The notes under the pieces were generated by a model that was not told the DNA's origin, did not search any database, and saw only the letters and a program-made list of their open reading frames with translations. A program made the translations under genes and the position numbers. DNA of 64,000 bases from an uncultured Bacteroidales bacterium (GTDB lineage: Bacteria; Bacteroidota; Bacteroidia; Bacteroidales; Paludibacteraceae), in the NCBI GenBank assembly GCA_902785605.1, contig CACZZL010000008.1, positions 8,538 through 72,537 of the forward strand, read 5' to 3'. Each line of letters begins with the position of its first letter. Position 1 is the stretch's first letter. Positions 4,059 through 57,560 of the stretch are shown here, piece by piece.

Positions 4059-5275
4059 TCCACGTAGAGGACTAAGCCTTTGAGGTATTCCCCTTCGGGG
4101 TGATAGATGTTGATCGGGTGGTCCTGGGGTTGGTGCAGTTGGTGGAGGATGCGCACCTTACGTCCCACTTGGGCGGCCGCGCTGAAGACGGCGAGGCGGA
4201 AGGCCTCTTTGTCCACGGCTTGGGAGCAGGAGAAGGTGAACAGGATACCACCCGGACGAATCATCTCGATCGCTTTGGCGTTGATGCGCTGGTATCCGCG
4301 CAAGGCGTTCTTGACCGCATCGCGGTGCTTGGCAAAAGCCGGCGGGTCGAGGATGATGAGGTCGAACGTACGTTTCTGCTCGCGCTGTTGAGTCAGGTAT
4401 TCAAACGCATCGGCAGCTACAGCTGTATGGTTGGTGGCCTGCGGGAAGTTACGTGCTACGTTGACGTTCACGAGTTCAATGGCTTTCTGGCTGACATCGA
4501 CCGAATCGACCGTCTTGGCTCCGCCTCGTAGGGCATATAACGAGAACCCTCCGGTGTAACAGAACATGTTGAGCACATCTTTGTCTTTCGCATAGCGCTC
4601 CACGAGTGCGCGGTTCTCCCGCTGGTCAATGAAGAAACCCGTTTTCTGTCCCCGCAACCAGTCGATGCGGAAAGAAAGACCGTTCTCGGTGGACCAGAAC
4701 TCATTGGTCATTGGTAATTGGTCATTGGTAATTAGCCAGCCTGTTTTCTCTCCTTCGATCGGGGCTTTGAAGGGCAGGGTATCGTCGGACTTGTAATAGA
4801 CGTTGTTCACCTGCGGCACTTCGGCCAGAACGGCCTTGGCGATCTCGTGCCGGCACACGTGCATGCCGACCGAGTGCGCTTGGATGACGGCCGTGTCGGC
4901 ATAGACATCAATGATCAGTCCCGGCAGGAAATCTCCTTCTCCGTGGATGAGGCGGAAGGTGTTATTGTCGGGTTGAATGAGTCCGATGGACTCGCGCACT
5001 CGGTATGCTGCCCGGATCCGTTCGTTCCAGAAATCGGCCGGTAATGTGTCCACACCGAACGCCAGAATGCGCACGGCAATCGAACCGACTTGCCAATGTC
5101 CGACACCCAGCACCTCATTGGACGCCGAATGTACGCAGACCAGTTCGCCTTCTTCCGGCGCAGCCGCCTTGTGCGACGCGTCCAGCACGACCCGCGCAAT
5201 CGCCCCCGAGAATACCCACGGGTGAAAACGCTTGAGCGATTCCTCTTTATGCGGTTTTAAATAGATCGTTGTCAT
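4055..5275 (-). CDS. rlmI: SAM-dependent 23S rRNA (cytosine-C5) methyltransferase, RlmI-like (PUA + class I MTase)
   Basis: N-terminal KRFHPWVFSGAI (PUA-like). MTase core LNMFCYTGGFS ... ILDPPAFAK. In-frame heptamer repeat at 4701-4735 encodes ITNDQLPMTNE. Confidence 0.8.
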   Translation of the reverse strand: MTTIYLKPHKEESLKRFHPWVFSGAIARVVLDASHKAAAPEEGELVCVHSASNEVLGVGHWQVGSIAVRILAFGVDTLPADFWNERIRAAYRVRESIGLIQPDNNTFRLIHGEGDFLPGLIIDVYADTAVIQAHSVGMHVCRHEIAKAVLAEVPQVNNVYYKSDDTLPFKAPIEGEKTGWLITNDQLPMTNEFWSTENGLSFRIDWLRGQKTGFFIDQRENRALVERYAKDKDVLNMFCYTGGFSLYALRGGAKTVDSVDVSQKAIELVNVNVARNFPQATNHTAVAADAFEYLTQQREQKRTFDLIILDPPAFAKHRDAVKNALRGYQRINAKAIEMIRPGGILFTFSCSQAVDKEAFRLAVFSAAAQVGRKVRILHQLHQPQDHPINIYHPEGEYLKGLVLYVE

Positions 5276-5763
5276 TCCACTCCGTGTGTTAAATCGTGAT
5301 ACGCGTGCAGCGACAGGTTATCGCTCACGTACTTGAAACTATGCAAGTGCTTGAACCCCAGCGCGGCAATGAATGCCAGCTCCATGTCGAACACGCAGTC
5401 CTTGTAATCCGACGTGAGCACAAAATCGCAGTTTGAGTAACAGATGGCCTGACGGCAATTGGAAATTGGCAATTGGAGATTTGAAATTTTCAACTCCGGT
5501 TCCGGATAGGTCACATTCGGATGGTAGAGGCGTACTTCCGTCACTTCGACCCATGTGCCCAGGTCAAAATTGGCACTGCCGGCGTAGCCGATGTTATACA
5601 GCTCTGCCTCGCGGTCGAGGTGTTGCAGACTCCTTATAACATTAGTCGCGCCTACGCCCGTGTACACGAGCTGCGCGTCGCTCAGATCCAGCCCCAGCGC
5701 TTCATGTGCCTGCTCGAGCAACACACGTTCGCCTTCTTCGGCCATGATGATATATTTCGCCAT
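5272..5763 (-). CDS. short nucleosidase / nucleoside phosphorylase-like protein (PNP_UDP_1-like)
   Basis: ORF 5272..6111. The start is taken at ATG 5763 (MAKYIIMAEEGE), just below the -7 box. IMAEEGE, TGVGATNV and NIGYAGS resemble MTA/SAH nucleosidase motifs. There is a 4-nt overlap with the rlmI start. Confidence 0.55.
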   Translation of the reverse strand: MAKYIIMAEEGERVLLEQAHEALGLDLSDAQLVYTGVGATNVIRSLQHLDREAELYNIGYAGSANFDLGTWVEVTEVRLYHPNVTYPEPELKISNLQLPISNCRQAICYSNCDFVLTSDYKDCVFDMELAFIAALGFKHLHSFKYVSDNLSLHAYHDLTHGVE

Positions 5764-5782
5764 AATTATTCGAATTTGGGCG

Positions 5783-5831
5783 CAAAGGTACAAAAAAATT
5801 TGCACATGTGCAAAAAAAATAGTACTTTTGC
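5783..5831. promoter_or_regulatory. back-to-back promoters sharing a palindromic -33 element TTGCACATGTGCAA
   Basis: Minus -7 TACCTTTG at 5783-5790. Plus -7 TACTTTTG at 5823-5830. The palindrome at 5800-5813 supplies a TTG box in both directions. Confidence 0.65.
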
Positions 5832-5848
5832 ACGCAATTTGGTTGGAT

Positions 5849-7549
5849 ATGGTTATGCGGCGTATAATTTTAGGCATACTACTGTTGGTTTTGTGCGCGT
5901 CTGTGTGGGCGGATGCGTTGTTGTCGGGTGCGTCGATAGGGCCGGGTGACCAATGGAAAGGACTGTCGTTTAACCAACCGCAGGTGATCACGATCGTAGG
6001 ATGGAAACCGACTAACTCCAAGGATGTGTTGCTGGGTATTTTTGAAGGCGCTAATCGTGCCGATTTCATGGATGCTGTGCCGCTGACGATCATCAGTAAG
6101 ACCACTATCAATCAGATGAATTACCTGTCCGTCGACTGTTCGCGCGGGTTCAGGTATGTGCGATTGGTTGCTCCAAGCGGGGGGAGCCTGTCGAATGTGA
6201 ACTTGGAGTTCTACGGCGAGCAGGGAACGGGTAATGATTCGCACCTGTGTCAGTTGACGAACCTGCCGGTGGTATATATCCACACGGTCAATAATGAGAT
6301 TCCGTACGACAAGGAGCACGAGATCGACTGTTTCATTTCTATCATTTCCAATGACGGGCAGACGATCTTATCGGACACCGCCACGATCCGCGAACGGGGT
6401 AATGCCTCGCGCGGATTTCCGAAGAAACCTTATCGTATCAAGTTCGCCCATAAGCACCAAGTGCTGGGTTCGCCGGCTAATGCGAAGAAATGGACGCTGA
6501 TTAATAACTATGGGGATAAAACGCTGATGCGCAATCAGTTGGCGTTCGAGTTGAGTCGTCGTCTCGGCATGCCGTATACTCCTTTTTGCGCCTACGTGGA
6601 TGTGGTGCTCAACGGCGATTACAAGGGATGTTATCAACTGTGCGACCAGATCGAGGTACGTAAGAATCGGGTGGATATCACGGAGATGAAACCTTCCGAT
6701 AACAGCGGTGAAGCGCTCACGGGCGGATACCTGATCGAGGCCGATGCCTATGCCGGCTCGGAGCAGTCGATGTTCTGGTCGGACTATGGAACGGGGGTGA
6801 CTATCAAGTCACCGAATGAGGACAGTATCACGTGGGAGCAGAGTGAGTACATCCGCAAGCACTACAGCAAGATGGAGAAGAACTGGAAGAAGTACCTCGA
6901 TCTTAACACGTTCCTGCGCCATTTTATTGTGGGCGAATTGTCCGGAAACACCGATACGTATTGGAGCATGTACCTGTACAAACACCGTTCGAATGACACG
7001 CTCTTTGTGGGTCCGGTGTGGGATTTTGATTTGGCGTTTGAGAACGACAATCGCACGTATCCGATTCGCAATCTGAACGATTACATCTACCGCACCAACG
7101 GTAGTACGACCGGTTATCTGCGTTCGCTGGTGGATAAGATTGTCATCAACGATGCTGCGGCCAAACTGCAGTTACTCGCTATTTGGGAGCAGGCGCGTAA
7201 AGCAGGACTGACCGAGGAGTCGATGCTTCAGTATGTGGACGAGCAGGAAGCGATGCTTCAGCAGTCGCAACAGCTCAATTTTATGCGGTGGCCGATCATG
7301 ACGCAGTACGTTCACCAGAACCCGCGGATATGGGGTTCGTACGAGGCGGAAGTGGAGAACGTGCGTAATTACATCAAACAGCGTATCCCGTGGATGGATA
7401 ACAAGATCGGATTCGATGTGTCCAAGTTGGATATCGACGAGACGCAGGTGCCTCAAACGGGGGAGGTGAAGAAGGTTTGGCAGGACGGACAACTGTTTAT
7501 CATTCGTGACGGCAAACGCTATACTTTGACCGGAATACAGGTCGAATAA
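5849..7549 (+). CDS. CotH kinase-family secreted protein with conserved C-terminal tail
   Basis: ORF 5591..7549. The start is taken at 5849 (MVMRRIILGILLLVLCASVWA signal peptide). CotH-like core (RNQLAFELSRRLGMPYTPFCAYVDVVLNGDYKGCYQLCDQIEV). Tail is KKVWQDGQLFIIRDGKRYTLTGIQVE. Confidence 0.7.
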   Translation: MVMRRIILGILLLVLCASVWADALLSGASIGPGDQWKGLSFNQPQVITIVGWKPTNSKDVLLGIFEGANRADFMDAVPLTIISKTTINQMNYLSVDCSRGFRYVRLVAPSGGSLSNVNLEFYGEQGTGNDSHLCQLTNLPVVYIHTVNNEIPYDKEHEIDCFISIISNDGQTILSDTATIRERGNASRGFPKKPYRIKFAHKHQVLGSPANAKKWTLINNYGDKTLMRNQLAFELSRRLGMPYTPFCAYVDVVLNGDYKGCYQLCDQIEVRKNRVDITEMKPSDNSGEALTGGYLIEADAYAGSEQSMFWSDYGTGVTIKSPNEDSITWEQSEYIRKHYSKMEKNWKKYLDLNTFLRHFIVGELSGNTDTYWSMYLYKHRSNDTLFVGPVWDFDLAFENDNRTYPIRNLNDYIYRTNGSTTGYLRSLVDKIVINDAAAKLQLLAIWEQARKAGLTEESMLQYVDEQEAMLQQSQQLNFMRWPIMTQYVHQNPRIWGSYEAEVENVRNYIKQRIPWMDNKIGFDVSKLDIDETQVPQTGEVKKVWQDGQLFIIRDGKRYTLTGIQVE

Positions 7550-7612
7550 GTCCTTTAAAAGGCTGCTTTTGGCATAAAATGATGTTTTTTAGCACTTTTT
7601 TTGGCAAAAAAT

Positions 7613-7644
7613 TTGCGTATGTCAAAAAAAAGCAGTACTTTTGC
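7613..7644 (+). promoter_or_regulatory. sigma-A promoter for tRNA-fMet and the downstream nuclease gene
   Basis: TTG at 7613-7615 and TACTTTTG at 7636-7643, within TTTGCGTATGTCAAAAAAAAGCAGTACTTTTGCA. Confidence 0.7.
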
Positions 7645-7681
7645 AGTCCCATTTGAAAAAAATGGTGTATATCGCGGAGTA

Positions 7682-7753
<72 letters not shown>

Positions 7754-7759
7754 TTTAAT

Positions 7760-9055
7760 ATGTTTAAGCATAGATTAGTAGTAATCATTGAGTTGGTTTT
7801 CACGCTCTCCGCATTCGCGGTGGAGCGTGTTTCGTTAGAACAACTCCAATCCGATTGGTCGCGTTATTCGAACCAAACGGTAGTCATCACCACACCGCTT
7901 GTTGTGTGTGGCAGTTTTTACGACAGTCTTATTCTGGCTCCCGAGCGTCTCTTCTGTCCGGAAGAGCGTGCACTTGGCTTGGCCGATGGCGACAGTACGA
8001 TGTACGAGCAGATCGAGGCGCACAATCGGGCTGCGTCTGTTTGTCTGCATTGCCGCAATCAGTATTACAGGGTGCGTACGGGCGATATCGTGCGCGGGTT
8101 ACAGGCTCGTGTGACGGGGGAGCGGCAACTGTTGACCGGTAAGTCGATCACGACCCGTCATTTGCCTCAGGACCGTTTGGCGCGACCCAAGAAGAACGAA
8201 CTGCGGATTGTGGGAGCGAATATTGAGAATTACTTTGCGGACTTGGGCGGGTATGCCACCAAACGTACAACGCCGGAACAGCAGGCACTCAAGACCCGCA
8301 AGTTGGTGTCGGCTATGCGTGCGATGCATGCCCATATCTTCGCGCTGTGCGAGATGCAGGTAGGGGATAAGGCGCCGCAGATGCTATTGAACGAGCTGAA
8401 TCGACACGGCGGACACTATGCGTTTGTGTCGATGCCGATGGCTAACATGGACCGTATCGGAGGCTGTTTTGTCTACGATACGCTGCGTGTGCGGCCGTAC
8501 TTGGCTCCGCTGTCGGCCTATCAGGATACCACCAGCCATTACCATGCGCGTATGTTCGCTGTCGGGTTTGAGGAGATACAGACGGGGGAGCGGTTCATCA
8601 TCAGTTTGAATCACTTCAAGTCCAAGCGTCCGGGGCGCAATCAGTACGACACCAACGCACGTCGTATGCAGAACACCGATTCGCTGATGGCGCTGTTGCC
8701 GCAAGCGGTGGCATGGTTCGCGGATGATGATATACTGCTGCTGGGGGATTACAACTGCTACACGCAGGAGCAGCCGATACAGACCATCGTGCGTGCAGGT
8801 TTGGCGGATATGCTGCCGCTCGGCAGTGCGAAGGACTATTCGTACAGTTTCAAAGGCGAGGCGGGTTATCTGGACCGCTGTTTTGCCAGCCCGTCCATGT
8901 CGAGTCAGATTGTTCGGGTTCGCCCGTGGCATATCAATGCCGACTGGTACTACCAGCACGGCGCGTATCGGATGAAAGACAAGACGCTTCACCGCTACGC
9001 GGACCACGATCCTATAGTCGTAGATGTACAACTACAAAAAAACGAGCAACTTTGA
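7760..9055 (+). CDS. secreted endonuclease/exonuclease/phosphatase (EEP) family nuclease
   Basis: ORF 7721..9055 begins inside the tRNA. The first ATG is 7760 (MFNMFKHRLVVIIELVFTLSAFA). EEP-like text (LRIVGANIENYF, LLLGDYNCY, HRYADHDPIVV). Confidence 0.7.
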   Translation: MFKHRLVVIIELVFTLSAFAVERVSLEQLQSDWSRYSNQTVVITTPLVVCGSFYDSLILAPERLFCPEERALGLADGDSTMYEQIEAHNRAASVCLHCRNQYYRVRTGDIVRGLQARVTGERQLLTGKSITTRHLPQDRLARPKKNELRIVGANIENYFADLGGYATKRTTPEQQALKTRKLVSAMRAMHAHIFALCEMQVGDKAPQMLLNELNRHGGHYAFVSMPMANMDRIGGCFVYDTLRVRPYLAPLSAYQDTTSHYHARMFAVGFEEIQTGERFIISLNHFKSKRPGRNQYDTNARRMQNTDSLMALLPQAVAWFADDDILLLGDYNCYTQEQPIQTIVRAGLADMLPLGSAKDYSYSFKGEAGYLDRCFASPSMSSQIVRVRPWHINADWYYQHGAYRMKDKTLHRYADHDPIVVDVQLQKNEQL

Positions 9056-11452: not shown

Positions 11453-11469
11453 GTGACTTACGCCTTTTG

Positions 11470-11542
11470 TGGAGCATAGGGGAGTCGAACCCCTGACCTC
11501 AACATTGCGAACGTTGCGCTCTACCAACTGAGCTAATACCCC
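11470..11542 (-). tRNA. tRNA-Ala (CGC)
   Basis: The reverse complement GGGGTATTAGCTCAGTTGGTAGAGCGCAACGTTCGCAATGTTGAGGTCAGGGGTTCGACTCCCCTATGCTCCA carries the G3:U70 alanine identity pair. The anticodon is CGC. Confidence 0.9.
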
Positions 11543-11543
11543 G

Positions 11544-11933
11544 TGGAGCTAACGGGAGTCGAACCCGTGTCCAAACAAGGAATACTTGTGCTTTCTACAC
11601 GCTTATCTTGGCTTTGATTTTCGTCCGTCGGCAAGACCCAAGCCACCAACCGCCGGCTTATCTGCTAAAGTTTCGGTATCGCATCGCAGCCTGCGATCCC
11701 TATTCTGTGAATTTCCGCACCGCTATATCCATTGAGCCCACAGACTCGGCTTGGAGCGATGTCTCGTTCAGACGCCTTGCATCCGAAAAAAGCTAATCTA
11801 CTGTACTTCGATTAGGCAGCGAGAGCATACTCATAGTTGCCAGTTATATTTTGAAGCGAGATTTACGAGCGTTGCATCATTGCTCGGCGTGCTTACACAA
11901 CCATTCTACCTGCTGTCAAAACCAAATAGCCCC
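11544..11933 (-). ncRNA. ssrA: tmRNA (SsrA)
   Basis: 5' end GGGGCTATTTGGTTTTGACAGCAGG. 3' tRNA-like end GGACACGGGTTCGACTCCCGTTAGCTCCA. The internal tag frame GGC AAC TAT GAG TAT GCT CTC GCT GCC TAA encodes GNYEYALAA, the Bacteroidota -YALAA type. Confidence 0.9.
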
Positions 11934-49886: not shown

Positions 49887-50107
49887 AGCCCGCCCATTCG
49901 ACCCAATATCGGACCAATCACGGAGGTGTATCGGACCAATATCGTATCCCACCACACTCTATATATACTATGTATATATCCCGTGATTTTGAAATTGAGC
50001 AAAAAAATGACCAAGTGAAAATGATATAGCCCGCTTTCTCAAGGCTTAAAAGAGAGGCAAAAAGATCTTTGATATATTGAAAAAGACTGAAAAAATGTAG
50101 GCAAGTC

Positions 50108-50139
50108 TTGCATATGTCGTAAAAAAGCAGTACCTTTGC
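50108..50139 (+). promoter_or_regulatory. sigma-A promoter of the PIN toxin-antitoxin pair
   Basis: CTTGCATATGTCGTAAAAAAGCAGTACCTTTGCA. Confidence 0.7.
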
Positions 50140-50167
50140 AGCGTCAAAGGTAAAACAACAACGATAT

Positions 50168-50362
50168 ATGGAAGATGTAGTATTAAAAATGCCGACCACA
50201 GACGTAGCGCTGATAATGCAGTTTGCTAGTCGTATGGGGTGGACGATAGAGAGTCGTCGCAACCCTGTAGCGCGTTTCATTGAGGCGTGCTCCAGAAACA
50301 ATGCCGCGCTGACCGATGAAGAAATTCAAGCAGAGGTAAATGCCGTTCGATATAACAAGTAA
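50168..50362 (+). CDS. putative antitoxin of the PIN pair
   Basis: 64 aa. Its stop is 1 nt before the PIN start codon. Confidence 0.5.
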   Translation: MEDVVLKMPTTDVALIMQFASRMGWTIESRRNPVARFIEACSRNNAALTDEEIQAEVNAVRYNK

Positions 50363-50363
50363 T

Positions 50364-50780
50364 ATGAACGTCATATTAGATACCAATATTTGGATTTCCT
50401 TCCTGTTCGGGAAGCAGTTGCAGAGTGTTGCATCTGTATTTGACAATGCGAACATTAAGGTTTATGTGTCTCCGGAGCAAGTAGCGGAGATACAATCCGT
50501 ATTGTCTCGTCCCAAGATTCGCGAACATATATCCCATGAGTCGATAGAAACAATGTGGGAGTTAATGCGCACACGATGCTATCCAATTGAGGACTATCCC
50601 GCGGTTGAATCATCTATCCGCGATGTCAAGGATGCATATCTGCTGGCTATGGCAGAAGCCATACCTGCGAGTGCGATAGTAACCGGAGATAAGGATTTGC
50701 TGGTGCTTAAACAGCATAAAGAGACAGCAATAATGACCTATCAAGAGTTCTTGGTATTATTGTCCGAAATTAGACTTTAG
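50364..50780 (+). CDS. PIN-domain toxin
   Basis: MNVILDTNIWISFLFG holds the first acidic residue. DAYLLAMAEA and VTGDKDLL are typical of PIN proteins. Confidence 0.75.
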   Translation: MNVILDTNIWISFLFGKQLQSVASVFDNANIKVYVSPEQVAEIQSVLSRPKIREHISHESIETMWELMRTRCYPIEDYPAVESSIRDVKDAYLLAMAEAIPASAIVTGDKDLLVLKQHKETAIMTYQEFLVLLSEIRL

Positions 50781-50809
50781 GTGTAATATTCCTACATTTA
50801 TAAATTCAG

Positions 50810-50846
50810 TCTGACACGTTACGAAAGTTTCGTGTCAGATTTTGTT
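50810..50846 (+). terminator. intrinsic terminator after the PIN gene
   Basis: TCTGACACG (50810-50818) pairs perfectly over 9 bp with CGTGTCAGA (50831-50839). TTTTGTT follows. Confidence 0.75.
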
Positions 50847-50931
50847 ATAGTCTTTTTCAATATGGTAAATGATTTAAAGTGCAAAAAGTGCAAAGCAAAA
50901 AACGAATAATAACATAAAAACACATATAGTT

Positions 50932-51411
50932 ATGGGGAAGACAAAACTTATTGTCATTAGAGACACCCAAAATCAAGGTAAGAGTACAACCATTTGGTTG
51001 TTGTTAAAGGAATTGTTGGCTCAGGAGGCAAAGGTTATAGAATTATATAACCTTAATGAGGATCATGCTATTGAGATCCCGGATGAGATGCCACCTCAAG
51101 GGTTTATCTATGATGTATGGGCTGTGTTAGAATGGCATGAACGAAAAATTGTGTTGGATAGCAGAGGTGATTATGTGAGATATTTGGAGACAGATGTTAG
51201 GTATGCAATAAAGAATTTTGATCCGGACTTTATTGTGTGTGCAGTACAGGAACGTCCTGGCTATAACAATATTTGGAACAACTTCAATAATAAGTTCCCG
51301 AATACAAAGTATGGTCGAATCTGTTTCTGGGTAGAGCGTTCGGAAGGTGAGACCGACGCGCATATGGTTAAGCGGCCTACGATAGAGGCCATAATGAAAT
51401 ATATGGGTTAA
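50932..51411 (+). CDS. small P-loop-like protein of unknown function (protein A)
   Basis: 159 aa. Deviant Walker A RDTQNQGKSTT near the N-terminus. DFIVCAVQE could be a Walker B. The gene is AT-rich. Confidence 0.45.
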   Translation: MGKTKLIVIRDTQNQGKSTTIWLLLKELLAQEAKVIELYNLNEDHAIEIPDEMPPQGFIYDVWAVLEWHERKIVLDSRGDYVRYLETDVRYAIKNFDPDFIVCAVQERPGYNNIWNNFNNKFPNTKYGRICFWVERSEGETDAHMVKRPTIEAIMKYMG

Positions 51412-51443
51412 AGTGAAACTAATATGAAATCATAAATAATATC

Positions 51444-53090
51444 ATGGCAAGAAAATCTCCATATACAGACAAGCAATTTTTGCAACAATTGCATATAGAT
51501 AGATTACGCGGCTTAGAGAATATTGAATTGTCTTTCTGCGATAATCCAAACGAGACAAATGTTTTGGGTGTTAACAAGAAGTATATAACTGGTATTTTTG
51601 GTAAGAATGGAAGCGGGAAAACCACATTGTTACAAACAATCCTATGCTTGTATCGTCCTAAATATCATAAAGTTGGTAACGAAGAGAAAGTATTTGCAGG
51701 TGCAACATGGCTCACAAGAATGAGTAGATTTTTTAAGCATATAGATGGTGTACTATGGGGAGAGAGCCAATTCTATGCAATCTATGAGCACGACTTGCTT
51801 AAAGGGGATACCCGTACTTTTGTTACTAAAAAGGTACCTTTCTCAAAAAGTATAACTGGAAAGAAAGATTGGAAACCTCAACAGCCTCAAAAATTTAATA
51901 GAGACATATTTTATGTTCCTATTCAAACGAGTGTCCCAGATATCGAATTTATTGCAAAGGACAAATCAAATGTGTCATATAGATTTACACCAAACAGTCA
52001 GCTGAGTCCTAGTATCTTGCAAGCAGCGAGTGCTATAACAAATATTGATTATCAACTTGTAGAGGTGGGCACTACGGCTGGATTCCATAGTTACAGAGTG
52101 ACTAAACAGATAAATGGTGTATCTGTTAGATATCATTCTTTTAATATGGGAGCAGGTGAACAACGTTTATTCCGTATTCTTGATATACTCTATAATGCCC
52201 CCAAATACTCGTTAATCGCGATTGACGAATTAGACATGACCTTGCATTCTGCAGCATTGCGAAAATTAATTGATGTTATTGATGTTAAGGCACAAGAAAA
52301 AAAATTTCAGGTCTTTTTTACATCGCATAGACCAGAATTAATGGATATGCCTCAAGTGCATTCTTATTACATTATGCATAGAGGAGACCAAACTTTATGT
52401 TTAGATAATCCTACTGCAGATTGTTATGAAGAATTAAGTGGAGAACAGAATAAGCCGTTTGTTATATATTTGGAGGACAAGTTTTCTAAAGCCATAACAT
52501 CAAAGGTGCTCTCCGATTTAAACTTAATACAGCGATCAAACATAATGTCCGTTGGCACATACCATAATTGCATTGTAATGCTATATGCGGCTATAACACA
52601 AGTACATGAGAATGAAATAAAATCCAATCCTGTTGATGCCGATGTAAGGGCGGCTAATATCATTAAAGATTATGTGGCTATTTTGGATGGGGATATATCT
52701 CCAGCCATTTTACAGTCCGAAATAAATAAGGTGATAACAGGAGGCGATCCTCTTACTCAAACACGTAAACGTTGGGTACAACAACAGATACTTCAGTATA
52801 ATAGCAAACCATCGCTTATACAACAGGGCAAGAACATGTGTCCTGAAGAGTTTATCCATGAGGCGTTTAAAGCTATACAAAATCCAATGAGCAGCATTGT
52901 TGTTATGTCAAATGGTATAGTGGTTTTGGATAATGACCCACATGGGTACTTTACTACTATTTTAAATGGGAACATATTTAGTATCGAAGGGGTTATTAAT
53001 GAATTTGCGGTCACTCCTGAATGGAGTAATTACGTTGTGACCATTAAGAGTTGGGCCCAAAGTCGAAAAGTGAGCCACCAATATACGTAA
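51444..53090 (+). CDS. OLD-family-like ABC-ATPase + TOPRIM/DUF4435-like fusion (protein B)
   Basis: FGKNGSGKTTLLQ (Walker A). NMGAGEQRLFRIL (signature-like). YSLIAIDELDMTLH (Walker B / D-loop). FFTSHRPE (H-loop). The C-terminal part has PFVIYLEDKFSK (Glu) and YVAILDGDISP (DxD), as in TOPRIM. Confidence 0.6.
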   Translation: MARKSPYTDKQFLQQLHIDRLRGLENIELSFCDNPNETNVLGVNKKYITGIFGKNGSGKTTLLQTILCLYRPKYHKVGNEEKVFAGATWLTRMSRFFKHIDGVLWGESQFYAIYEHDLLKGDTRTFVTKKVPFSKSITGKKDWKPQQPQKFNRDIFYVPIQTSVPDIEFIAKDKSNVSYRFTPNSQLSPSILQAASAITNIDYQLVEVGTTAGFHSYRVTKQINGVSVRYHSFNMGAGEQRLFRILDILYNAPKYSLIAIDELDMTLHSAALRKLIDVIDVKAQEKKFQVFFTSHRPELMDMPQVHSYYIMHRGDQTLCLDNPTADCYEELSGEQNKPFVIYLEDKFSKAITSKVLSDLNLIQRSNIMSVGTYHNCIVMLYAAITQVHENEIKSNPVDADVRAANIIKDYVAILDGDISPAILQSEINKVITGGDPLTQTRKRWVQQQILQYNSKPSLIQQGKNMCPEEFIHEAFKAIQNPMSSIVVMSNGIVVLDNDPHGYFTTILNGNIFSIEGVINEFAVTPEWSNYVVTIKSWAQSRKVSHQYT

Positions 53091-53099
53091 TAATTTAAA

Positions 53100-53215
53100 C
53101 ACAAACAACATATAAAAATTATTGAGCGCGTACACGTACACGCGTACGCGAATGGAATAGAATACTAATAAAAATATAAAATATTAAAACTATCATGAAA
53201 AATTTTAATCTGGAT
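53100..53215 (+). repeat. leader / 5'-end copy 1 of the giant-gene leader family
   Basis: CACAAACAAC...ATTATTGAGCGC, then a 25-nt R/Y tract (53126-53150), then AAAAATATAAAA...ATCATGAAAAATTTTAATC. It is homologous to 53855-54029 and 57376-57560. Confidence 0.75.
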
Positions 53216-53809
53216 TCGGAGAAGTTTGTTCAAGCATTGATTGGGCTTCATGCTGACACCTTCGATATGAACGATCAACAAAGAATAATATCTTTGTCTC
53301 AAAAGTTAGAAAATAACAAAATAGGATGGGTAAACGTCAATATTAACAATCTTGTAAATAATGCTAATATTCTTTCGTATCCGGAAGATATATTGTGTTG
53401 TTACTACCCTTCAATATACCAATACCTTCAAAAAATACCAAGACAATATTGGTTCGTAATAACAATTCCTCAGGGTGTAGATACGGCAGACCCATTCTTA
53501 TATAAAAATTTTGAAAATCACTTTGAGAGTTTCATGTCAATCAAGGAAGAAATTAAGCTATGGGGATTAGGAGAATTATTGTTTTTTAAGATTGAGCAAT
53601 CGCATATTATATCTGTTTTTAATGTAGAACAACCGTGTGTAGACAATGCGAAAAATCTTTCAATTATCTTGCAACAATGGATAAATAAGCAATATTTTGA
53701 TATTTATAATAAGATTAATTATGCTTGGAAAGTAAGATATTCTAAAGTGTATGAATATGAAGATATTCCGGTGACCTTAAATAATATTGAAAAAGGTAGG
53801 ATCGCATAA
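53195..53809 (+). CDS. hypothetical protein (protein C) whose first codons derive from the repeated leader
   Basis: 204 aa and AT-rich, with no motif I recognise. It starts MKNFNL, compared with MKNLNL for the giant gene. Confidence 0.45.
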   Translation: MKNFNLDSEKFVQALIGLHADTFDMNDQQRIISLSQKLENNKIGWVNVNINNLVNNANILSYPEDILCCYYPSIYQYLQKIPRQYWFVITIPQGVDTADPFLYKNFENHFESFMSIKEEIKLWGLGELLFFKIEQSHIISVFNVEQPCVDNAKNLSIILQQWINKQYFDIYNKINYAWKVRYSKVYEYEDIPVTLNNIEKGRIA

Positions 53810-53854
53810 TATAAATTTATCAGGAGCATTGGGTTAGGTTATTCTCAAAAACAC

Positions 53855-54029
53855 CACAAACACCCAATATGAATTATTGAGCGCACACACATGCGCGTGG
53901 AGAGATAAGATAACAAAAACCCAAAAATATAAATCATCATGAAAAAACTTTAAACTTAATCAGTCGGCTATTGTCATATAGCCATGAAAAACAATCACCG
54001 CAGCGCTTCGCCCGCTATGCGGCTATGCT
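53855..54029 (+). repeat. leader / 5'-end copy 2, with a frameshifted start
   Basis: ATTATTGAGCGC, then a 19-nt R/Y tract (53881-53899), then ATGAAAAAACTTTAA (a 2-nt insertion relative to copy 3 gives MKKL-stop). About 90 nt follow that are nearly identical to 57480-57560. Confidence 0.8.
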
Positions 54030-54542
54030 CGCTGGGAAAATTTCCAAGTAGCAATCAATCGGGCAAAAGATGCATGTAACTCGCAAAATATCAATACTGA
54101 TGATCATTTTCGTGACGTCACGAAAACGATACCTATGCCTAAAGGAGCACAAAAAGAAATCAATGATGTTCTACTCTCCCGTTATGCCTGCTATCTAATT
54201 GCACAGAATGGCGATCCAAAGAAAGAAGAGATCGCTTTTGCACAGAGTTATTTTGCTGTACAGACACGCCGTGCGGAACTGATTGCAGAGCGGTTACAAC
54301 TACAGCAACGGTTAGAAAAACGCGAAGAGTTGAGAGCTTCAGAAAAACGTTTATCTCAAAATATCCCCTCTATTACTACAGAACACGTCCAGAACAATCG
54401 CACCGTGAGAGACATGATGGGTCAGCGAGGGATTAAGCCGGAGGAATTGCCGCCTGCAGAGGATATTAAGAAAGTAGAGCGGCGAGTTGCTAAAGAAGAA
54501 AAGGCTTTAGGTGAATCACAAAAACTACCCAGAAAAAAGTAA
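54021..54542 (+). pseudogene. dinD: dinD (DNA-damage-inducible protein D) remnant lacking its 5' end
   Basis: In frame from 54021: GYARWENFQVAINRAKDACN...LLSRYACYLIAQNGDPKKEEIAFAQSYFAVQTRRAELI...IKPEELPPAEDIKKVERR. There is no start codon before ATG 54135. The N-terminal roughly 40 codons are replaced by leader copy 2. The middle of the protein appears shortened. Confidence 0.6.
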
Positions 54543-54662
54543 ACGAACCAAGTCTTAAGTGTCCGAATGACACCATAAGATGGGCCGGTAAAAACAAGAA
54601 CGTAAAAGCACAACACTAACCTCGGTTAAAAGAAGGAAATACCTTAAAACTTATCAAGCAAT

Positions 54663-55562
54663 ATGAGAACAGATGGAAGCAAACTAAAGAAATTTGAATT
54701 TCCTCCCGAAGCTTATGCCATAAGGTTATATTTCAAGTGTGAAGGATGCCAAAATGAAATTGCATTGTATGACATAGAGTGCCCTGCGATTACATTTGAA
54801 CACCCAGAGCCAGATGATCTCAATGATGGAACCTCTCATAAAACATGTAGTTGTAAATACTGTGGGCATCTTTATGACGTAGATTTAAACAACAGATATG
54901 GTGCGGGAATGGGGACTATCAAAGGCTTATATGAAAATGCCTCTGTATATGTAGTCAATCAAGAATCCATAGATACTGTTTTTCAAGAAAAGATTCAGGA
55001 TCAATATTCACACATAGTTAATCAATGTTACGATGCAGACAAAATGCTTCAAGAGATAGATCCTCTGATAATTAATGAAGAAACGCGCCAATACCTCTAT
55101 AAGCTGATATATGTTTCTTTTATAGCATGTATGGAAGAATATCTTTATTTTACTTTAATCAACTTAATAACACTTAGTGAAGATAATAAGGATGCTTTTG
55201 GCGCTAATGCGGAAAAGATAAGAAGAAAAATTGAGAACGAGTTACTTATACCCGGCAAAAGCTACGAGGAGGTATTGAAGTCTATACTATTAAAGAGAAC
55301 TTTTCATCCGACTGAAGAAATTTGCGGGTACTACAATATATATGGAATAGATATATTGGAAGGGATTTCTAAAAAGATACTCGATGACGCAATTGATATT
55401 CGAAATGATATAATGCATCGAAATGGTTTGAATATTCACAATAATATAACCTCTTTAAGCAGAGAAGATATAGATGCATTAAAAAACGAGGTGCTAAAGC
55501 TCATTGGTAATGTTGAAACCCAAGTGGTAAAGTATATTAGAAATATAGAGATCCATGATTGA
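54663..55562 (+). CDS. Zn-ribbon + HEPN-like protein (protein D)
   Basis: 299 aa. CEGC (26-29) and CSCKYC (62-67) form a zinc-ribbon pattern. IDIRNDIMHRNG has R247-x4-H252 (nt 55401-55418), the HEPN Rx4-6H signature in an alpha-helical C-terminal half. Confidence 0.5.
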   Translation: MRTDGSKLKKFEFPPEAYAIRLYFKCEGCQNEIALYDIECPAITFEHPEPDDLNDGTSHKTCSCKYCGHLYDVDLNNRYGAGMGTIKGLYENASVYVVNQESIDTVFQEKIQDQYSHIVNQCYDADKMLQEIDPLIINEETRQYLYKLIYVSFIACMEEYLYFTLINLITLSEDNKDAFGANAEKIRRKIENELLIPGKSYEEVLKSILLKRTFHPTEEICGYYNIYGIDILEGISKKILDDAIDIRNDIMHRNGLNIHNNITSLSREDIDALKNEVLKLIGNVETQVVKYIRNIEIHD

Positions 55563-57216
55563 TCAAAATAAATTTCCGGTATATAGCCGCCAATATGTAG
55601 ACCTAATTAATAACAAGTTTAGGGATGGCGATTTCGTTACGATTTGTAACGATAGGCAGTTCTGCGCTCTGGTGGACGATGAACATGCCGGCGTTTACAT
55701 GCAAGGATATTCATGGGATCTGCATTTTACGGATCCCTCTGAACGAATAAGTGAGCATGATAATAAATTCCTACACTTAGATACATATAATGACGGAATA
55801 ACACCGTTCGTTTATCAAGTTGAATCTCTCGACGAGCGACCTCCATATTACTATATTGATAATGATTTTTTGGCTTTATACAAATTATTTCCACGCTATG
55901 GTGAATACAAAGAAATCTATTATGTGCAAGTGAATGTGGCTTGTGAGGAAACCATAGTAATCAAAGTAGAAGGAAGTGTTGTATCTATTCGGGAAGACTA
56001 TTTATTGGAATATCTGGCTATAAAACAATTAAACTTATTGCTGTTTTTCGATTATATTGTATATGACCCTGCAAAATTAGAAGGAGAACCCCAACGAAAT
56101 ATAGTATATTCAGATAAGGATTCGTTTTTTATTTATTGTGATGTAGAGCCAACCGGTTTGTTTCAAGAGTGGAAGTCAGGTGGCTGGTTCATGGGGAAAG
56201 TGATATATCGCCATAATAATGACATCCGGCATCTTTGGGATCCAATAGATGACAAATATGAAGATTTTATTGTTGGAGTAAAAGAAAATGGAAAACTTGA
56301 GTATAGTACTTGTGAAGAAGATAAGTTGACGAATTTATTTAATTATGAAGGAAAGGGTACTTATACTTTAACACCGGTATATTTTGATAGAGAGGTGTTA
56401 AACAGATATATTCAGAATCCTGACCGATATTCAGTACGAGATGGCTATCTTAGTGCTCCGTCATGGATGTTGAAGATGGATAATGACAGAGCAGATAATA
56501 ATATTGCTGTATTTCTGGTGGATCTGGGGCGTATTCCTTACGCGGAGCAGCAGCACTGGAAAAAATATAATGTGATACCAAAGGGACTGAGTTTGAGTAA
56601 AACTGCGGTTGCAAGAAATATCATAGGGCTATCTACTAATGCTAAAACTAATCCGGCGCACGTATTTAAGCAACAATACATTGATCTCAATCAGAAATGG
56701 GAAGCGAAATACGGTTGGCCGATATTTTTACCTTTTGGATCTCCTGAGGAAAATGAAGAATTCCAAAACTTGGACATTTTAAATACGGACAACAATTTCA
56801 AAGAACTAAAATGTAATATACTTACGATCACTAAAAGTGTTGTTGACTCATTAAATGAAATTAAAATAATTGAAGCTATCAATACTATGGGAATAGATAC
56901 GAAGGAGTATTTGGATAGCGTTAGCAAGAAAATTGGAAAAGAATTAAAGAATGTCTCTGATATATGTGGTGGAATTAATAGGCTTGAATGTCTCCTAATT
57001 ACAACTAAAAACGAAGATGTGGAATTTATTAAAACTCTTCGAAATATCCAAGAATTCCGTTCTGGCGTCATAGCCCATAGAGAACATCGGGATTCAAATA
57101 AAGCTCGCAATGCACTTAGTCTGGATAAATATGATCACCGAACAGCATTAAATCTTATATATATCGAACTGGCAAATGGCTTTGCTCGAATAAATAACGC
57201 CATTTGCAAACCCTAA
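55555..57216 (+). CDS. large uncharacterised protein with C-terminal HEPN-like Rx5H motif (protein E)
   Basis: 553 aa. The ATG overlaps the protein D stop (ATGATTGA). The C-terminus reads LRNIQEFRSGVIAHREH, with R502-x5-H508 (nt 57058-57078). The N-terminal roughly 480 aa has no motif I can name. Confidence 0.45.
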   Translation: MIDQNKFPVYSRQYVDLINNKFRDGDFVTICNDRQFCALVDDEHAGVYMQGYSWDLHFTDPSERISEHDNKFLHLDTYNDGITPFVYQVESLDERPPYYYIDNDFLALYKLFPRYGEYKEIYYVQVNVACEETIVIKVEGSVVSIREDYLLEYLAIKQLNLLLFFDYIVYDPAKLEGEPQRNIVYSDKDSFFIYCDVEPTGLFQEWKSGGWFMGKVIYRHNNDIRHLWDPIDDKYEDFIVGVKENGKLEYSTCEEDKLTNLFNYEGKGTYTLTPVYFDREVLNRYIQNPDRYSVRDGYLSAPSWMLKMDNDRADNNIAVFLVDLGRIPYAEQQHWKKYNVIPKGLSLSKTAVARNIIGLSTNAKTNPAHVFKQQYIDLNQKWEAKYGWPIFLPFGSPEENEEFQNLDILNTDNNFKELKCNILTITKSVVDSLNEIKIIEAINTMGIDTKEYLDSVSKKIGKELKNVSDICGGINRLECLLITTKNEDVEFIKTLRNIQEFRSGVIAHREHRDSNKARNALSLDKYDHRTALNLIYIELANGFARINNAICKP

Positions 57217-57375: not shown

Positions 57376-57560
57376 GCCCGTTTTATTCGGGCGCGACAGC
57401 GCAACGCATGCGTAGACGCACAAAGGTGCGCAAAAAATGAAAACATAACTAACTAAAAATATAAAACATCATGAAAAATTTAAACTTAATCGAAAGGCTA
57501 TGGACAGATAGCCATGAAAAACAATCGCCGCAGCGGTTCGCCCGCTATGCGGCAATGCTA
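57376..57560 (+). repeat. leader / 5'-end copy 3, the functional copy attached to the giant gene
   Basis: TTTTATTCGGGCGCGACAGCGCAACGCATGCGTAGACGCAC (a degenerate R/Y tract), then AAAAATATAAAACATCATGAAAAATTTAAACTTAATC...CGCTATGCGGCAATGCT. Confidence 0.75.

Follow-up and report, generated by a model that had tools for sequence, protein, structure and literature searches.

Two overlapping genes with HEPN-type motifs in a Bacteroidales island belong to protein families that occur apart elsewhere

When two genes overlap at their stop and start codons and both products carry the short arginine-histidine motif of HEPN ribonucleases (RNases), do they form a two-gene defence system? The question is raised by a 64,000-nucleotide stretch of DNA from an uncultured Bacteroidales bacterium of the Paludibacteraceae (contig CACZZL010000008.1, positions 8,538 to 72,537), called the window here. 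Gene D (54663..55562) encodes a 299-amino-acid (aa) protein with a predicted N-terminal zinc ribbon and C-terminal RiboL-PSP-type HEPN domain. Gene E (55555..57216) encodes 553 aa and belongs to an unnamed protein family. Both lie on the forward strand, as do all window features below unless stated otherwise. A first-pass annotation, made from the sequence alone, proposed that D and E are a two-HEPN operon. Comparison with their relatives refutes a conserved operon of this kind: D and E are separate single-gene modules that have been joined in one lineage.

The gene structure is as first described. Re-reading the open reading frames (ORFs) and their junction recovered the same coordinates, lengths and 8-nt overlap (ATGATTGA, 55555..55562), with D ending in ATC CAT GAT TGA and E beginning with ATG ATT GAT CAA. 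Every quoted peptide was also found: CEGC...CSCKYC and IDIRNDIMHRNG (R247-x4-H252) in D, LTPVYFDREVLNRY... and LRNIQEFRSGVIAHREH (R502-x5-H508) in E. The overlap is identical in two further copies of the locus (L008 and L009). The start codon called for E is credible because the N-terminus it gives (MIDQNKFP...) lines up with that of its homologues (MIDSKQYPL...). The island is indeed AT-rich, with a GC content of 0.32-0.41 across 50-57 kb vs about 0.52 in the flanks. In a comparison with the L008 copy, the ratio of non-synonymous to synonymous substitution rates (dN/dS) is 0.27 for D and 0.21 for E; the substitution counts are small, and at these counts both genes look intact, functional and under purifying selection. 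An Rfam scan of 49-58.5 kb gave no match.

Evidence on the two-gene question comes from where the relatives of D and E are found. Hidden Markov model (HMM) scans of all ORFs within 4 kb on either side of 80 D-family loci detected no E-family gene (0/80). Conversely, no D-family gene was found in the 7 first E-family loci, 93 further loci or 6 extra contexts that were surveyed (about 100 loci, outside the window lineage). The D-E pair has been seen only in copies at least 97% identical, from the window lineage. Neither family has another conserved partner: the commonest neighbour of D is present in at most 5/80 loci, and that of E, the integrative and conjugative element (ICE) gene PcfJ, in at most 7/37 dereplicated groups. 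In both families the majority of genes lack a neighbour on the same strand within 30 nt. The first-pass annotation had made its own proposal depend on D and E being neighbours in other genomes, and they are not. A stop/start overlap together with common short motifs is insufficient to call a two-gene system.

What if the system is real but confined to this lineage? In this scenario D and E would form a heteromeric RNase with a composite HEPN active site, or one would restrain the other in the manner of a toxin and antitoxin. We consider this improbable, although it has points in its favour. The 8-nt overlap would couple translation of the two genes. In the window lineage there are at least six sequence variants, with D and E always together on the same contigs and the same overlap throughout. 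Both genes sit in one cassette bounded by a direct repeat (see below), and both appear to be under purifying selection. HEPN RNases commonly act as dimers, with their Rx4-6H motifs at the interface, a general habit that fits a joint active site. Furthermore, E can be coupled to another RNase, because in a distant E clade the gene overlaps a downstream PIN toxin gene; one member of that clade has a weak DUF2281-like tail. On the other hand, D and E do not co-occur in the loci surveyed elsewhere, both families are mainly solo with changing neighbours, and their profiles are unrelated. Nor does the overlap alone imply a functional link, because a D homologue also overlaps the conjugation gene traQ.

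Other groupings were tried and rejected. The idea that D and E are diverged paralogues with a common HEPN domain was dropped at the sensitivity of hhalign, which gave a probability of 0.45%. In one E-family locus (L001) an AAA_21 ATPase, a 197-aa protein and E resemble the AAA_21 ATPase and 204-aa protein of the window, as if there were a three-gene system. However, the ATPases and the small proteins are unrelated by BLASTP, and the segment is swapped out in L008. A trio of a Bro-N/DinD-like protein, D and a large protein (L025) was also ruled out: the 609-aa protein there shows no relation to E (hhalign 0.12%), and similarity between the Bro-N proteins is not significant.

The two proteins are therefore best taken one at a time. 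A k-mer-limited search for relatives of D returned two, near-identical sequences, and an exhaustive HMMER search returned 174 representative clusters, mostly of about 290 aa and aligned over their full length. Conservation was read from an alignment of 40 relatives (20-29% identity), linked to D by HMMER E-values of 1e-21 to 1e-8. Eight residues are invariant: C26, C29, C64, C67, E158, H215, H252 and R253. The four cysteines make up the ribbon (C26-x2-C29 ... C64-x2-C67, 54738..54863), and several family members match Pfam zinc-ribbon models. The HEPN domain (aa 134-288, 55062..55526) lies in the C-terminal 155 residues, which span nearly the whole of the PF18735 (HEPN_RiboL-PSP) profile (positions 22-189 of 191, E=7.7e-4). 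PF18735 is matched by 28/40 relatives, the best with E=2.6e-12, whereas HEPN_Apea is matched by one relative only (E=0.009). The predicted catalytic motif, R247-N-D-I-M-H252-R253 (55401-55421), has the family consensus RHDIVHRNGK, with R247 in 39/40 relatives and H252 and R253 in 40/40. Position 248, next to the motif arginine, is occupied by N in D and mostly by H in the relatives. In catalytic HEPN domains the arginine of the Rx4-6H motif is followed by a polar residue (Anantharaman et al., 2013; PMC3710099), and the D-family RHDIVHRNG is the canonical R-[polar]-x3-H form. Because of the invariant cysteines and motif residues and the PF18735 matches, D combines, as judged from sequence, a zinc ribbon with a HEPN domain of RiboL-PSP type, and the zinc ribbon and HEPN domain that the first-pass annotation assigned to D are both supported.

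This makes D an ordinary new member of a HEPN clade known since Anantharaman et al. (2013; PMC3710099). Its full-length relatives come from Bacteroides xylanisolvens, Phocaeicola, Alistipes, Prevotella, Odoribacter and Flavobacteriia, and the architecture of zinc ribbon plus HEPN in about 290 aa is common in Bacteroidota. The typical context of RiboL-PSP-type HEPN domains is a fusion to an L-PSP endoRNase or an operon with ParB (PMC3710099). D differs in having a C4 zinc ribbon, no L-PSP fusion and no conserved partner in the loci of its 80 relatives, and its N-terminal fusion is new relative to those given for the clade in that paper. In PADLOC-DB 2.0 D has a single match, to REase_II (E=0.0085), and no system model. 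Sequence and profile searches of the PDB with the D family found nothing, and the searchable literature contains no characterised protein of this architecture.

E is a different case. Its relatives form 112 clusters at 90% identity, without any Pfam domain, and a second search of a large protein database, with the E profile as query, recovered these 112 again, none of them domain-swapped or annotated. In metagenomes a pattern scan detected at least 577 stretches encoding the family, and 13 were detected in viral contigs. The family has no consistent match in Pfam, NCBIfam, PADLOC or PHROGs; E itself has none in PADLOC-DB 2.0, where scans of the families as a whole yielded no more than scattered single matches. 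PDB sequence and profile searches with the family found nothing, and Foldseek with full-length E gave no match at E<0.1 in PDB or BFVD. The long N-terminal part of E thus still has no assignable family, as first stated, and it is also correct that neither D nor E matches a named defence system in PADLOC-DB 2.0. Literature searches (RiboL-PSP; HEPN and zinc ribbon; HEPN genes inside hsd operons) found neither family described. E represents a new unannotated family and is a reasonable candidate for a defence gene.

What is conserved in this family? Across 40 homologues with identities down to 24%, 19 residues of E are invariant: W54, K215, G246, F277, V281, L282, L321, D323, L324, P328, E331, W335, N339, S432, Q499, R502, S503, H508 and R509. 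Eleven of these belong to a central block (aa 272-339, 56368..56571; pattern LTPVYF..EVL..Y ... DLG..P..EQ.HW..YN), namely the ten from F277 to N339, with G246 counted in just upstream. An AlphaFold 2 (AF2) model of full-length E (predicted local distance difference test score, pLDDT, 88.5; predicted template modelling score, pTM, 0.73) is beta-rich over aa 1-345 and has ten helices in aa 349-551. Modelled alone, aa 343-553 again give ten helices and no strands (pLDDT 88.4, pTM 0.82). The protein can accordingly be divided into an N-terminal beta-rich region (aa 1-~240, 55555..56274, by model secondary structure), the central block and an all-helical C-terminal domain (aa 349-551, 56599..57207). 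One clue to their importance is a set of mini-E proteins of 280-342 aa on IMG/VR contigs (L191 4851-5879, L192 1455-2297, L193 5040-5882), which match only positions 275-553 of the E HMM. The central block is kept in these and in a 572-aa homologue (L190). Because mini-E has only the central block and the helical domain, these two make up the minimal core, and the dispensable beta-rich region is an accessory.

Is E, like D, a HEPN protein? The bare motif is no guide, because at least one Rx4-6H occurs by chance in 78% of shuffled versions of E and in 60% of those of D. Extra copies that are not conserved are present in both proteins (in E, an Rx6H at R219/H226). Only the conservation of the motif exceeds chance: R502, S503 and H508 are found in 40/40 members, and the five residues of the putative RNase active site, Q499-x2-R502-S503-x4-H508-R509 (57049..57081), are all invariant. 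The spacing between R and H varies from 4 to 5 residues in the family, because the distant homologue L190 has LRNEIRGH at this position and mini-E has LRLWADH, that is R-x4-H in place of R-x5-H. The residue after the arginine is polar in the E family (S) and in L190 (N) and a leucine in mini-E. About 70 residues upstream, at the end of a helix in the same domain (56845-56859), D431, S432, N434 and E435 of the sequence DSLNE are invariant or nearly so; the spacing differs from that of the Ex3[KR]-type second acidic motif. The C-terminal domain of E is probably a HEPN-like RNase, judging from this conservation and the model. What remains of the original HEPN assignment is an invariant Rx5H in a confidently predicted all-helical domain; what it lacks is a significant profile or structure match to any HEPN family.

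That lack is the starting point for a different explanation, in which E is not an RNase at all. The Q-R-S...H-R cluster could serve ligand or nucleic-acid binding or regulation, as it does in MtlR-type domains that have no catalytic activity, the central block could be the effector, or E could be non-defence accessory cargo of ICEs or restriction-modification (R-M) loci. Consistent with this, conservation of E is strongest in the central block and not at the C-terminus, the commonest neighbours are genes of conjugative elements (PcfJ, tra genes, lysozyme), and the sole fold neighbour, MtlR, is largely non-catalytic. However, R and H are invariant and are kept at a spacing of 4-5 in very distant relatives. 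The polar residue after R in the E family and L190 also follows the pattern of catalytic HEPN domains, mini-E with its leucine being the exception, and E turns up repeatedly among R-M, abortive infection (Abi) and toxin-antitoxin (TA) genes. On balance, an E without RNase activity seems unlikely.

The genomic contexts of the two families are instructive. In L092 an E relative has hsdS on one side and hsdR on the other, in a type I R-M operon with an AbiEii gene. Two others (L007, L099) lie in decayed type I R-M (hsd) loci with MNT/HEPN genes, the MNT (Polbeta) genes directly upstream, and two (L007, L090) overlap a PIN gene. Other E neighbours include AbiEi/AbiEii, methyltransferases, AAA_21 ATPases and insertion sequence elements, and some E relatives follow traQ and a lysozyme gene in the tra region of CTnDOT-like elements. 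D relatives are found after traQ in B. xylanisolvens and beside AbiE, SIR2_2, STAND and HNH genes. Most members of both families lie in R-M loci, Abi/TA clusters or CTnDOT-like elements, a defence or mobile setting that bears out the defence context first proposed for the pair. From these contexts, both families are interchangeable cargo in defence and mobile hot spots.

Some individual loci add detail. In Bacteroides xylanisolvens XB1A (L010, 1612-5849) and in L003/L004 (3330-7671), CTnDOT-like conjugative elements carry a cargo gene in the corresponding slot immediately after DUF4138 (TraN)/TraO/TraQ, of the D family in the first and of the E family in the second; it is the D homologue of L010 that overlaps traQ, and an HNH_5 protein follows. 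D homologues stand beside related SIR2-like proteins of 413-434 aa in three loci (L014, L017, L019), and in L025 (4870-6699) one overlaps the gene of the 609-aa protein mentioned above, whose C-terminus looks PD-(D/E)xK-like (DH..VVFFVEKCK). D-family genes may associate repeatedly with different effector-type neighbours. The most divergent clade of E (L007 6001-8129, L090 6001-8216; proteins P0107-P0110, on contigs of 4.4-5.1 Mb) has a C-terminal extension of about 45 aa, and its stop codon overlaps the start of the PIN-domain gene. The extension of P0107 weakly resembles DUF2281 (E=0.001, below threshold). In this clade E may be a fused antitoxin or may regulate a VapC-like toxin. The syntenic locus L099 has no called PIN gene.

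Taking these lines together, the explanation we favour, with modest confidence, is that D and E are unrelated modules of toxin or Abi type, each made of a single protein and mobile on its own, that were joined in an operon of one Bacteroidales-like lineage. Several observations weigh against it. The overlap, the strict co-occurrence within the lineage and the common repeat-flanked cassette could reflect a functional dependence between D and E. No canonical Bacteroidetes -7 promoter motif (TAnnTTTG) was found upstream of D in 53700-54662. The PF18735 score of D itself, 19.8 bits, is lower than the gathering score of 28.4. For E, Pfam matches 0/40 relatives, and hhalign against the D-family HEPN gives the 0.45% already quoted. 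Against the PDB, the best Foldseek matches of the C-terminal domain are chains of MtlR (6kcr_C, 3brj_C, 6kcr_A), with the listing's highest template modelling (TM) scores, 0.29-0.38, and non-significant E-values of 0.86-5, the best match having E=0.86 and TM 0.38; hhalign of E against MtlR gives 0.34%. MtlR is counted among the HEPN families (PMC3710099), so the place of its chains at the head of the list counts in favour of a HEPN-like domain in E. The structures of MtlR/YggD (pdb 3brj, 3c8g, 6kcr) have the HEPN fold and align with the domain of E over about 181 columns, but at a root-mean-square deviation of about 10 A, and these proteins are mostly non-catalytic and located in mannitol operons.

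How would two such joined modules work? The operon would be co-transcribed, with its overlapping stop and start, from a cassette within a variable slot of a defence island. In D, the C4 zinc ribbon may act as a sensor or anchor that binds nucleic acid or protein, and the HEPN domain is predicted to be a metal-independent endoRNase using R247 and H252, with E158, H215 and R253. In E, the core would be the central block (aa ~272-339) and the C-terminal domain with Q499, R502, S503, H508 and R509, most likely a diverged HEPN-like RNase acting through R502 and H508; the beta-rich N-terminal region may be the sensory or regulatory part. If D and E behave like PrrC and other HEPN Abi proteins, each would stay inactive until a cue related to infection or damage appears. 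D or E, whether or not they interact, could then cut cellular or phage RNA and so arrest growth.

Known systems offer partial parallels. PrrC is a HEPN RNase encoded in type I R-M operons (PMC3710099). E resembles PrrC/RloC in that relatives lie in type I R-M loci (between hsdS and hsdR in L092, and in the two decayed loci) and in its combination of a C-terminal R..H domain with a large, putatively regulatory N-terminal part. However, E and its 40 relatives have no ABC-ATPase or P-loop match, the N-terminus is beta-rich, there is no sequence or profile similarity, and the window E and most E loci lie outside R-M operons. HEPN Abi families combine a variable N-terminal domain with a C-terminal HEPN (PMC3710099), an architecture that we infer for D and E as well. 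Solo genes of the AbiD/AbiF/Abi_2, AbiJ, AbiU2 and ApeA type in defence islands and R-M operons share their context with the D and E families. Nevertheless, no Pfam or PADLOC model of those families matches any of the 40 E members. HEPN-MNT and VapBC systems have the same overlapping two-gene layout with a putative RNase, the PIN overlaps of L007 and L090 recall them, and L007 and L099 have the upstream MNT genes. The window pair differs in having no MNT, antitoxin-like small protein or DNA-binding domain, and both of its partners have putative RNase motifs.

Upstream of D and E lies a variable island slot (50006..53887, outside the D/E unit) that holds a PIN-type TA pair, a 159-aa protein, an AAA_21 ATPase and a 204-aa protein. 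L008 shares the backbone of the window but carries, in place of these 3.9 kb (window 50006-53887), 4.4 kb of unrelated genes (4596-9001), among them those for a 23S_rRNA_IVP-like protein and four unknown ORFs; the flanks are 88-98% identical. The slot is strain-variable and lies between the genes for chorismate synthase and a giant surface protein, and neither an integrase nor a tRNA is close by. Its TA genes are as the first-pass annotation had them (50168-50780; TIGR00305, E=1.6e-21). The neighbour it called OLD-like is a 548-aa ABC-type ATPase (51444-53090; AAA_21 3.5e-21, AAA_15 2.4e-11) in which no TOPRIM domain was detected, so only the ATPase half of that description stands. Its best PADLOC matches are HEC-04, AriA and AbiLi, and its C-terminal 230 aa have no family. 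Together with the 159-aa protein, which has a weak P-loop/nSTAND3 match, and the 204-aa protein, which has no match, it forms an operon-like trio (50932-53809) that may be a further, uncharacterised defence module.

The DinD-like gene, D and E form a segment that is 97.6% identical between the window and L008. The first of these, a truncated DinD/Bro-N-like gene of 135 aa (54135..54542; NF008573 DinD E=7e-45, PADLOC PDC-S13 E=5e-48), covers only profile positions ~75-156 and has lost 216 nt from its interior compared with the 226-aa copy in L008, itself short; it is probably decaying. A direct repeat of about 115-145 bp (87% identity over 86-113 nt), to which no strand is assigned, brackets the three genes. 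Its downstream copy (57414..57559) includes the upstream region, the start (57472) and the first ~29 codons of the gene for the large surface protein (2227-2637 aa; Flg_new is matched in L008 and L093). The upstream copy (53884..54029) is a frameshifted relic of the same 5' end. By blastn and repeat search the alignment pairs 53944-54029 with 57474-57559 and extends to ~53918/57447. Shorter repeats (53100-53142/53855-53897 and 53179-53208/53923-53952/57455-57484) include junction repeats with a GC-rich palindrome ahead of the 204-aa gene. This suggests serial insertion of cassettes at the 5' end of the surface-protein gene, duplicating that end. Elsewhere in the window, on the minus strand, ARAGORN places a tRNA-Ala (cgc, 11469-11542) directly against a tmRNA (11543-11933, tag GNYEYALAA); the juxtaposition (11469-11933) could be real or a mis-call of the tRNA-like part of the tmRNA.

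A more ambitious reading of E, which we regard as doubtful, is that the family comprises structurally novel solo RNase guardians. Each would combine an unseen central domain, a diverged HEPN-like domain and a beta-rich sensor without a known fold. Carried as cargo on Bacteroidales conjugative elements and inserted in type I R-M operons, E would be a PrrC-like second-line Abi RNase without an ATPase, and one that can be wired to a second RNase, with PIN downstream in one clade and D upstream here. The family is common in mobile elements of gut Bacteroidales, and current annotation pipelines do not see it, because Pfam, NCBIfam and PADLOC have no model for it. If E is an active, phage-protective RNase, it would be a new defence family of the single-gene kind, and its sensor fold would be an uncharacterised one. 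The recurrent insertion between hsdS and hsdR would then be a second, ATPase-free case of the 'R-M guardian' logic of PrrC, and the D-E junction offers a natural test of combining two unrelated HEPN proteins.

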